From a virus (lineage: Duplodnaviria > Caudoviricetes), in IMG/VR virus record IMGVR_UViG_3300013382_000004: a DNA stretch of 64,000 nt, one strand, 5' to 3'. Every line of letters starts with the position of its first letter. The stretch's first letter is position 1. Made by a program: the position numbers and the translations under genes. Shown here piece by piece: positions 51,045 through 51,678 of the stretch. The notes beneath the pieces were generated by a model. The model was not told the origin of the DNA. It saw only the letters and a list, made by a program, of their open reading frames with translations, and did not search any database.

Positions 51045-51678
51045 TAATAAATTGCGAAGACTTGGAAGTTATTCCCCGCTCTATTACTTCCTTCACTCAT
51101 TGAAACTTTCCCGTCTACGGCTATCCATTTTGGCGGACAAGTGATATAAGTCTTCTTGTAAAACTGCGAACAACCTACCCGTAGGTTATTCAAATACGAT
51201 AATAAGCGCTCCGACCCCCATCGGATTCTTATTAAAGGTGAGGAATAGACAACGTTCACCTCACTATGAGCCTCTGGTCCTAGCCTCTGGACGATGCCGC
51301 GCTCTTTGTCTAACATTTTTAGTTAGCAATCAACCTATTCTATCGGGCAAGAATCCGATAAATAGGATTTTATAATTCTTGCAAGAATTTTCCACCATTA
51401 ACTTTCAGGTGGGGGGGAGCTTGCCGCTCTAGTATCTTCGTAGTTCCTATTTCTACAAAGTATGCTTCCGACAGTATAAACTTTATACATGTCTAAGAAG
51501 TCATTGCATCTCAGCTATCATTGAATATTCAATTGTGTGTCTTGTAGGCAAGAACGTGATTTACCTATCAGGCCTGTTAGTATAAATCAAGAAGATTTTT
51601 TCTACGCTACAGGAGAAAATTTTTTTCTCTTTCGGGGAGAATCTTTTCTTCATTTTTTCATCCTTTCCCTTGGGACAC
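51045..51678 (-). ncRNA. candidate large structured ncRNA (~630 nt)
   Basis: Promoter TTGACA-17-TATATT at ~51711-51683, no credible CDS, more than 12 hairpins, downstream hairpin ~50991-51032. Confidence 0.65.

Follow-up and report, generated by a model that had tools for sequence, protein, structure and literature searches.

A conserved, modular and structured non-coding region in a clade of gut jumbo phages

The locus and its boundaries

The window, i.e., the whole 64,000-nucleotide stretch of phage DNA that was analyzed, contains a gap of approximately 750 bp that separates a 108-aa gene (51719-52045, minus strand) from a 161-aa gene (50485-50970, minus strand). The GC content is 0.46 at 51100-51299 compared with 0.27-0.35 in the flanks, in agreement with an earlier note on this DNA, which had described the gap as having more GC-rich stretches than its neighbors and had proposed a large ornate non-coding RNA of about 630 nt at 51045-51678. 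The neighborhood is made up of phage genes, including those for an RNase H-like protein (PF04308) and a radical SAM protein, and the remaining neighbors are mostly small proteins without any family match. The TROVE/Ro60-like gene that had been placed about 2 kb away is indeed present: a DUF2828/DUF7788/vWA (TROVE-like) gene lies 2.1 kb upstream at 53788-55515 on the minus strand and belongs to phrog_850, which is annotated as 'RNA-binding protein'. The leader of this gene (55530-55650, minus strand) carries a promoter of its own (TTGACA..TATAGT-like) together with a hairpin in which ACAGCAA occurs.

A sigma-70-type promoter is predicted at 51683..51711 (minus strand), with the -35 box TTGACA, a 17-nt spacer and the extended -10 element TGgTATATT. 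It matches the consensus at 11 of 12 positions, the TG is present, and the predicted transcription start is at approximately 51676. The -35 and -10 hexamers are unchanged in all 37 sequences of alignment A3, which comprises 37 distinct copies of the region collected with the flanking proteins and invariant DNA words as anchors; in L104, one of three further copies beyond A3 (L101, L104, and L107), there is a single change just upstream of the -10 hexamer. At the other end, a 3' hairpin and an intrinsic terminator occupy 50985..51051 (minus strand), namely AUUUAUUAAAUU-GGA-AAUUUAAUAGA followed by a 15-bp A/U-rich stem and a U run. The terminator-like hairpin with its U run (51027..50993, minus strand) is conserved across the 37 sequences; the 3' hairpin (helix 31) is 100% paired and the terminator (helix 32) 98.6%, with one-sided compatible changes only. 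The 161-aa gene has its SD and start codon no more than approximately 20 nt past the terminator. The non-coding unit is thus predicted to run from promoter to terminator at 51676..50985 (minus strand), approximately 690 nt. The RNA does lie in the interval first proposed, but the unit is longer, extending past 51045 to take in two more 3' hairpins, one of them the terminator. We infer the transcription, the ends and the abundance of the RNA.

In the relative L029 (ENA ERZ27253193 k141_699174, 1480-1600), the RNA is absent and the same promoter is found approximately 60 nt before the downstream gene, the product of which is the most divergent homologue of the 161-aa protein (70% identity); this arrangement is either a natural deletion or the state before insertion. 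The earlier description of a minus-strand promoter belonging to the RNA therefore holds only in part: the near-consensus promoter is present at 51711..51683, but in this RNA-less relative it serves the downstream operon directly. L107 (L107:2062-2680; Logan SRR13434632) carries a divergent copy of the RNA without the terminator and without the 161-aa gene, and the RNA runs into the SD of a 332-aa gene, ending approximately 10 nt upstream of the gene's start. The product of the 332-aa gene has a weak match to DUF7666. The arrangements in L029 and L107 indicate that the RNA heads an operon, is independent of the 161-aa protein and can be lost.

Anatomy of the RNA

The consensus structure, calculated with RNAalifold on A3, contains 197 pairs in 32 helices, and 98.6% of the cells in the alignment pair. 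The minus-strand hairpins listed in the earlier note were all located at the positions given there. The helix AAGGAUG/CGUUCUU, in which an SD-like stretch is sequestered, closes the 5' domain (51550..51677, minus strand); the domain includes helices 3-5, of which helices 4 and 5 carry compensatory changes. One hairpin of the domain is variable and takes a long form in the window, L010, L042, and L048; another has an 8-nt loop with the self-complementary AGGCCU. The following segment (51463..51533, minus strand; helices 8, 10, and 11) consists of the hairpin AAUUGAAUAUUCAAUU, the conserved unpaired AUAGCUGAGAUGCAAUG and the stem GACUUC/GAAGC, which is capped by a GNRA loop (GAAA; GUAA in L107) in some phages and by an extension of approximately 30 nt (GUAUAAAGUUUAUAC) in the window. 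Next is a hairpin with an invariant loop (51436..51460, minus strand), CUUUGUAG-AAAUAGGAA-CUACGAAG, whose stem, helix 12, has two pairs with 11-12 double changes each.

The middle of the RNA is built from repeated hairpins. At 51392..51429 (minus strand) there is a first, simpler copy of a two-hairpin module, GAGC-GGCAA-GCUC followed by CCACC-UGAAAGUUAAU-GGUGG (helices 13 and 14). The changes in these two helices are CG to UA in 8 sequences, and AU to CG/UA together with CG to UA in 8-9 sequences; the second hairpin of this copy is missing from some phages. A palindromic hairpin, AAUUCUUGCAAGAAUU, and hairpin W, CCUAU..AUUCUUGC..AUAGG, occupy 51334..51388 (minus strand; helices 15-17), and three pairs of helix 17 have double changes. 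The loop of W, AUUCUUGC, is a repeat of the palindrome's left half and the complement of GCAAGAAU; all the changes observed there fit both a hairpin and a pseudoknot between GCAAGAAU and the W loop. W is duplicated together with GCAAGAA in L008, L042, L052, and L057, degenerate extra copies of W are found in L006 and L048, and the copies of AUUCUUGC always outnumber those of GCAAGAA by one.

The main repeat unit (51238..51329, minus strand; helices 18-20) is composed of hairpin X (UUGCUAAC..GUUAGAC), AAAGAGCG, hairpin Y (GUCC-AGAGGCUA-GGAC), GAGGCUCAUAG and hairpin Z (GUGAGG-UGAACGUUGUCUAUU-CCUCAC). Hairpin Y is enclosed by a 4-bp helix, GAGC/GCUC, which is GAGU/ACUU in L035, and the loop of hairpin Z begins with UGAA and ends with CUAUU. 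In the window, the two-hairpin module, i.e., the GAGC/GCUC stem, which bears a variable arm, followed by the hairpin with the UGAA loop, is present once; the relatives have one to three copies in tandem. The comparison of the units covered 32 distinct ones. In A3, four pairs of hairpin X have double changes.

The 3' core (51064..51234, minus strand; helices 22-30) is nearly invariant, including its loops, with a mean identity of 93%. It contains the nested hairpin AAUAAG(UCCGA-UGGGGG-UCGGA)CUUAUU and the hairpin GAAUAACCUAC-GG-GUAGGUUGUUC, and the rest is formed by the helix AGAAGAC/GUCUUC, a branched region and the hairpin GGAAGU..ACUUCC. In L107, the inner hairpin of the core is retained with another sequence, UUCGG../..CCGAA in place of UCCGA/UCGGA. 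The long-range helices are ambiguous, as there are two occurrences of AAGAC, for which GUUUU and GUCUU are alternative partners.

Several candidate motifs were rejected. An H-type pseudoknot in hairpin Z (AUAG/CUAU) would have unfavorable geometry, and L035 changes one side only; the motif by which hairpin Z would mimic an SD or anti-SD sequence is not conserved among the module copies. The hammerhead-like CUGAUGA in hairpin X lies within a covarying stem and has no Rfam match, and the T-box-like GGUGG lies in the variable stem that is deleted from some phages.

Conservation, coding potential and distribution

The mean pairwise identity is 91% in the 5' domain and 93% in the 3' domain, compared with 86% in the downstream gene and 90% in the upstream gene. 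When the window is compared with the other copies, the RNA is 82-95% identical and the genes are 73-82% identical. Length differences between the homologues correspond to whole hairpins. Double changes occur in 19 pairs (96 cells); shuffled alignments gave 10.7±1.8 and 24.5±4.9, respectively, and none of the 500 shuffles reached the observed values, a significance that is overstated because the sequences are closely related. In slid controls, in which the partner was moved by 1-3 columns, double changes occurred in 3-8 pairs. The helices with the best support are 4, 5, 12, 13, 14, 17, 18, 20, 23, and 24; many others never vary because the homologues are close (mostly 75-95% identical), and the structure was drawn from the same alignment as the covariation counts. 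When the divergent copy of L107 is compared with the structure, 125 pairs are unchanged, 19 show compatible changes, 7 show compensatory changes and 9 are broken.

The variable pairs contain 392 G·U cells and 53 A·C cells. This excess indicates that the RNA is the minus strand and argues against a purely DNA-level element. The folding energy cannot serve as evidence of the strand, because both strands give significant z-scores (-3.6 for the minus strand and -4.9 for the opposite strand).

There is no open reading frame longer than 90 aa in the gap under code 11, with TAG read as Gln or under code 4. The 90-aa frame at 51316..51044 is open in the window, lacks an SD, and is frameshifted, truncated or restarted in L002, L004, L006, L008, L010, and L023. 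Its variable columns are distributed over the three codon positions as 28/31/30, compared with 50/35/98 in the neighboring 161-aa gene. The earlier note had named coding conservation of this frame as the observation that would count against a non-coding RNA; the frameshifts, the indels and the missing third-position bias speak against such conservation. A mini-ORF near the 5' end (51620-51655, minus strand), located behind the SD-like AAAGGA, encodes 30 aa in the window and 13-40 aa elsewhere, with a stretch RKRF shared by most homologues and a CGG codon in most relatives. Its frame, start and length vary and the SD-like stretch is paired in helix 3; it is probably untranslated because frame and length are not conserved.

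The region is therefore conserved, non-coding, structured, strand-specific and modular as judged from the alignment, and it lies between a predicted promoter and a predicted terminator. The earlier proposal of a large ornate non-coding RNA is borne out by the conservation, the lack of coding and the covariation. In descriptive terms, such RNAs are longer than approximately 500 nt, non-coding, and endowed with covarying helices and conserved loops and junctions; all of these features are found here, with the transcript itself being predicted.

In total, 40 distinct homologues of approximately 575-845 nt each were gathered, and the span from the -35 box to the U run is 656-879 nt. All of them are found at the identical genomic place and on the same strand. 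They come from complete phage genomes of 212-221 kb with terminal repeats and from contigs of human, Hadza, and pig gut metagenomes. A covariance model built on the 3' core (model R1) gave exactly one match in the window (150.7 bits), and each of the five complete genomes that were searched had a single match at full score (147-151 bits). A weak second match in G406 (21.5 bits), approximately 40 nt upstream of the first, is taken to be a duplicated module.

Scans of IMG/VR with exact and degenerate patterns and with protein anchors yielded nothing beyond the same 15 contigs. The metagenome scan added 22 loci of the same clade and three chance matches (L054, L056, and L059), and searches with the two flanking proteins returned 8 and 3 clusters, respectively, all from this phage clade, among which L029 and L107 were found. 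The only match in the genome scan was a phage contig binned into a metagenome-assembled genome (MAG) labeled uncultured Clostridium sp. Low-complexity noise was all that BLAST against 400 sampled bacterial genomes and model R1 against 150 sampled genomes, both from the class of that Clostridium-labeled MAG, detected, and blastn against GenBank phages found no similar sequence. The RNA family is narrow in distribution. Its restriction to one clade of gut jumbo phages of approximately 210-220 kb belongs to the explanation given below, which we consider somewhat more probable than not as a whole. L071/G001 (USDL01000001.1, 'uncultured Clostridium sp. UMGS1616') is a 123-kb contig of this phage clade in a 1.3-Mb MAG, and its placement there is either a hint of the host or a binning artefact.

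Relation to known RNAs and possible function

The earlier note could not assign the RNA to a family by eye, and the same outcome was obtained when the whole window was searched by cmscan with all 4227 models of Rfam 15: no match reached the gathering score. Permissive scans of the window, L010, and L107 copies (E values up to 5-10) gave snoRNA and miRNA noise only. ROOL (which we take to be Rfam RF03087) and GOLLD (presumably RF01998) did not match at the gathering score or in the permissive scans, nor did Rfam 15 yield any match to OLE, HEARO, raiA, RNase P, tmRNA, 6S, group I/II introns or T-box. Likewise, no Y RNA or YrlA model of Rfam matched this RNA of approximately 690 nt, and ARAGORN predicted no tRNA gene and no tmRNA in the window. 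The Rfam scans thus exclude ROOL, GOLLD, OLE, HEARO, raiA, Y RNA, T-box, RNase P, tmRNA and the introns as homologues. This is a real family of large structured phage RNAs that has apparently not been described before, although the general kind, ornate phage RNAs, is known.

ROOL and GOLLD are large ornate RNAs of Firmicutes and their phages, and GOLLD usually adjoins tRNA genes. The RNA described here resembles them in its size (approximately 0.6-0.8 kb), its ornate build of many hairpins, its location in phages, its low-GC gut or rumen setting and the absence of an obligate neighboring protein gene. On the other hand, it matches neither model, it is not located beside tRNA genes, of which the window has none, it heads an operon, its tandem modules vary in copy number, and it is found in one phage clade.

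The decoy RNAs CsrB/RsmZ and ToxI/pseudo-ToxI provide another comparison, since they also contain repeated structured modules whose copy number varies among close relatives, as in the expansion of pseudo-ToxI. By analogy with such multivalent decoy or sponge RNAs, modules of variable copy number would suit the titration of a protein. The modules of the phage RNA differ in being 60-110 nt long and non-identical, and no ToxN-like or CsrA-linked gene is found nearby. A CsrA sponge was considered and rejected, as GGA is not enriched (approximately 14 versus 11 expected, counted by eye).

A catalogue of structured viral RNAs from the same kind of data, the intergenic regions of IMG/VR, contains motifs of 30-151 nt and none of approximately 700 nt (Fremin et al. 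2023; PMC10690425). The phage RNA is set apart from these motifs by their described lengths, and pieces of it may be among them.

Our preferred explanation, to which we give somewhat better than even credence, is that the region specifies an undescribed family of large structured non-coding RNA that acts in trans as a multivalent scaffold or decoy. Transcription by host RNA polymerase would occur early, from the near-consensus sigma-70 promoter and with the RNA as the first element of the operon; at the intrinsic terminator (51027-50993) most transcripts would stop, which would release the RNA. The released RNA would then act in trans in early infection, with each module and the invariant 3' core offering binding surfaces to a host or phage protein or to other copies of the RNA. 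We favor a scaffold or decoy because the copy number of the modules varies among close relatives, because the 3' core is invariant even where it is unpaired, and because the RNA outlasts the loss of the terminator and of the downstream neighbor in L107.

The operon promoter shared with L029 and the terminator-less arrangement of L107 fit a cis-acting leader equally well, and this is the main alternative, which we regard as a serious possibility of lower probability, taken as a whole. The RNA would then be a giant 5' leader (an attenuator or riboregulator) of the operon that begins with the 161-aa gene; responding to a protein, an RNA or a metabolite, it would set how often transcription reads through the terminator, or how stable the operon transcript is or how well it is translated. 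Such a role is consistent with the position of the promoter directly before the downstream gene where the RNA is missing, with the running of the L107 RNA into the SD of the next gene and with the lack of a visible separate promoter in the approximately 20 nt between terminator and SD. Furthermore, GUCUUC, the 3' strand of the closing helix, lies directly next to the 3' hairpin and the terminator, and a 9-10-nt repeat (AAUUUAAUA) in these two elements would permit alternative pairing. Against a leader, however, the length of 575-845 nt far exceeds that of known bacterial leaders, variation in module copies combined with an almost invariant 3' core that is better conserved than the regulated gene would be unusual for a leader, the RNA persists in L107 despite the loss of the terminator and the 161-aa gene, and no cis-regulatory family of Rfam matches.

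A homo-oligomer made of RNA only, held together by loop-loop contacts, is doubtful in our estimation. ROOL, GOLLD and OLE form such homo-oligomers (PMC12286853, with cryo-EM structures of ROOL and GOLLD), and the size class, ornate build and phage origin of the present RNA resemble the homo-oligomeric ROOL and GOLLD (PMC12286853). The AGGCCU/GGGCCU loop of the 5' domain keeps its GGCC core in 37 of 37 sequences of A3 and the full hexamer in 36 of 37 (L067 has a G-to-A change), and the complementarity of AUUCUUGC to GCAAGAAU, with the constant surplus of one AUUCUUGC over GCAAGAA, would offer a second contact. Short palindromes are, however, expected by chance (approximately 0.6 among approximately 15 loops, by our own estimate), no covariation separates intermolecular from intramolecular pairing, and homology to ROOL and GOLLD is lacking. 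Self-assembly by way of the AGGCCU loop, or of pairing between AUUCUUGC and GCAAGAAU, is accordingly possible at a level of support that does not exceed chance.

The ribonucleoprotein link suggested by the neighboring TROVE-like (Ro60-like) gene seems improbable to us. TROVE proteins bind diverse structured RNAs, and the RNA might be the partner of this DUF2828/DUF7788/vWA protein, a reading prompted by synteny: in the window, L030, L031, L033, L035, and L101, the gene is encoded on the same strand at a distance of 2-4 kb upstream. A structured RNA near a TROVE-like vWA gene, here in a phage, recalls the pair of YrlA and Ro60/Rsr. Y RNAs, however, are approximately 100-200 nt long, with a tRNA-like module and a Ro-binding stem, so that the phage RNA is three to seven times larger, and it matches no Y RNA or YrlA model. 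In addition, phrog_850 is a PHROGs family of phage proteins whereas the RNA is found only in this clade, and several unrelated genes lie between the RNA and the DUF2828 gene.

We consider it very improbable that the region acts at the DNA level, for instance as an origin of replication, as a site for packaging or as an array of operators marked by palindromes and iteron-like repeats. The features that would suit such an element are the perfect 16-bp palindrome AATTCTTGCAAGAATT, the repeated modules, the A/T-rich ends and the good folding of the opposite strand, but the substitutions are strand-asymmetric, as seen in the G·U and A·C counts, the promoter and terminator are oriented and conserved, and the compensatory changes keep hairpins rather than sequence repeats. 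Protein coding is just as improbable: the 90-aa frame (51044-51316), open in the window, has no SD, is broken or shortened in six homologues and shows no codon-position bias, and the 13-40-aa frame behind AAAGGA, for which the shared RKRF stretch speaks, shifts in frame, start and length, and its SD-like sequence is paired in helix 3.

To return to the trans-acting scaffold or decoy, a further, speculative extension that we think unlikely is that the tandem modules and self-complementary loops build an RNA-only or RNA-protein assembly that captures a host factor early in infection by the jumbo phage, such as a defense sensor, a ribonuclease or a component of translation. If true, this would be the first function for an RNA of the ROOL/GOLLD type. 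To our knowledge, few large structured RNAs of bacteria or phages have been described (OLE, GOLLD, ROOL, HEARO, and raiA), and those carried by phages have no assigned function. The present RNA is a further, independent family, clearly bounded and present once per genome, and it may belong to a broader RNA-based strategy of infection. Its close relatives are natural variants in which the RNA is absent, the terminator is absent, or one to three modules are present, and they offer ready-made genetic contrasts for the function of a large RNA. The RNA is also a compact and well-conserved target for cryo-EM or chemical probing.

Inteins were observed at several places in these genomes. In L036 (L036:1-1118), the DNA methylase encoded upstream of the RNA contains an intein (Intein_splicing, Hint_2, and LAGLIDADG_3) that is present in some relatives only; in those without it, the gene encodes 313 aa. 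The gene upstream of the RNA in L107 encodes a C5 DNA methylase with an intein carrying a LAGLIDADG domain. In the window, a radical-SAM-like protein (57080-57994, minus strand) has an N-terminal remnant of an intein-splicing domain, according to a weak Pfam match.
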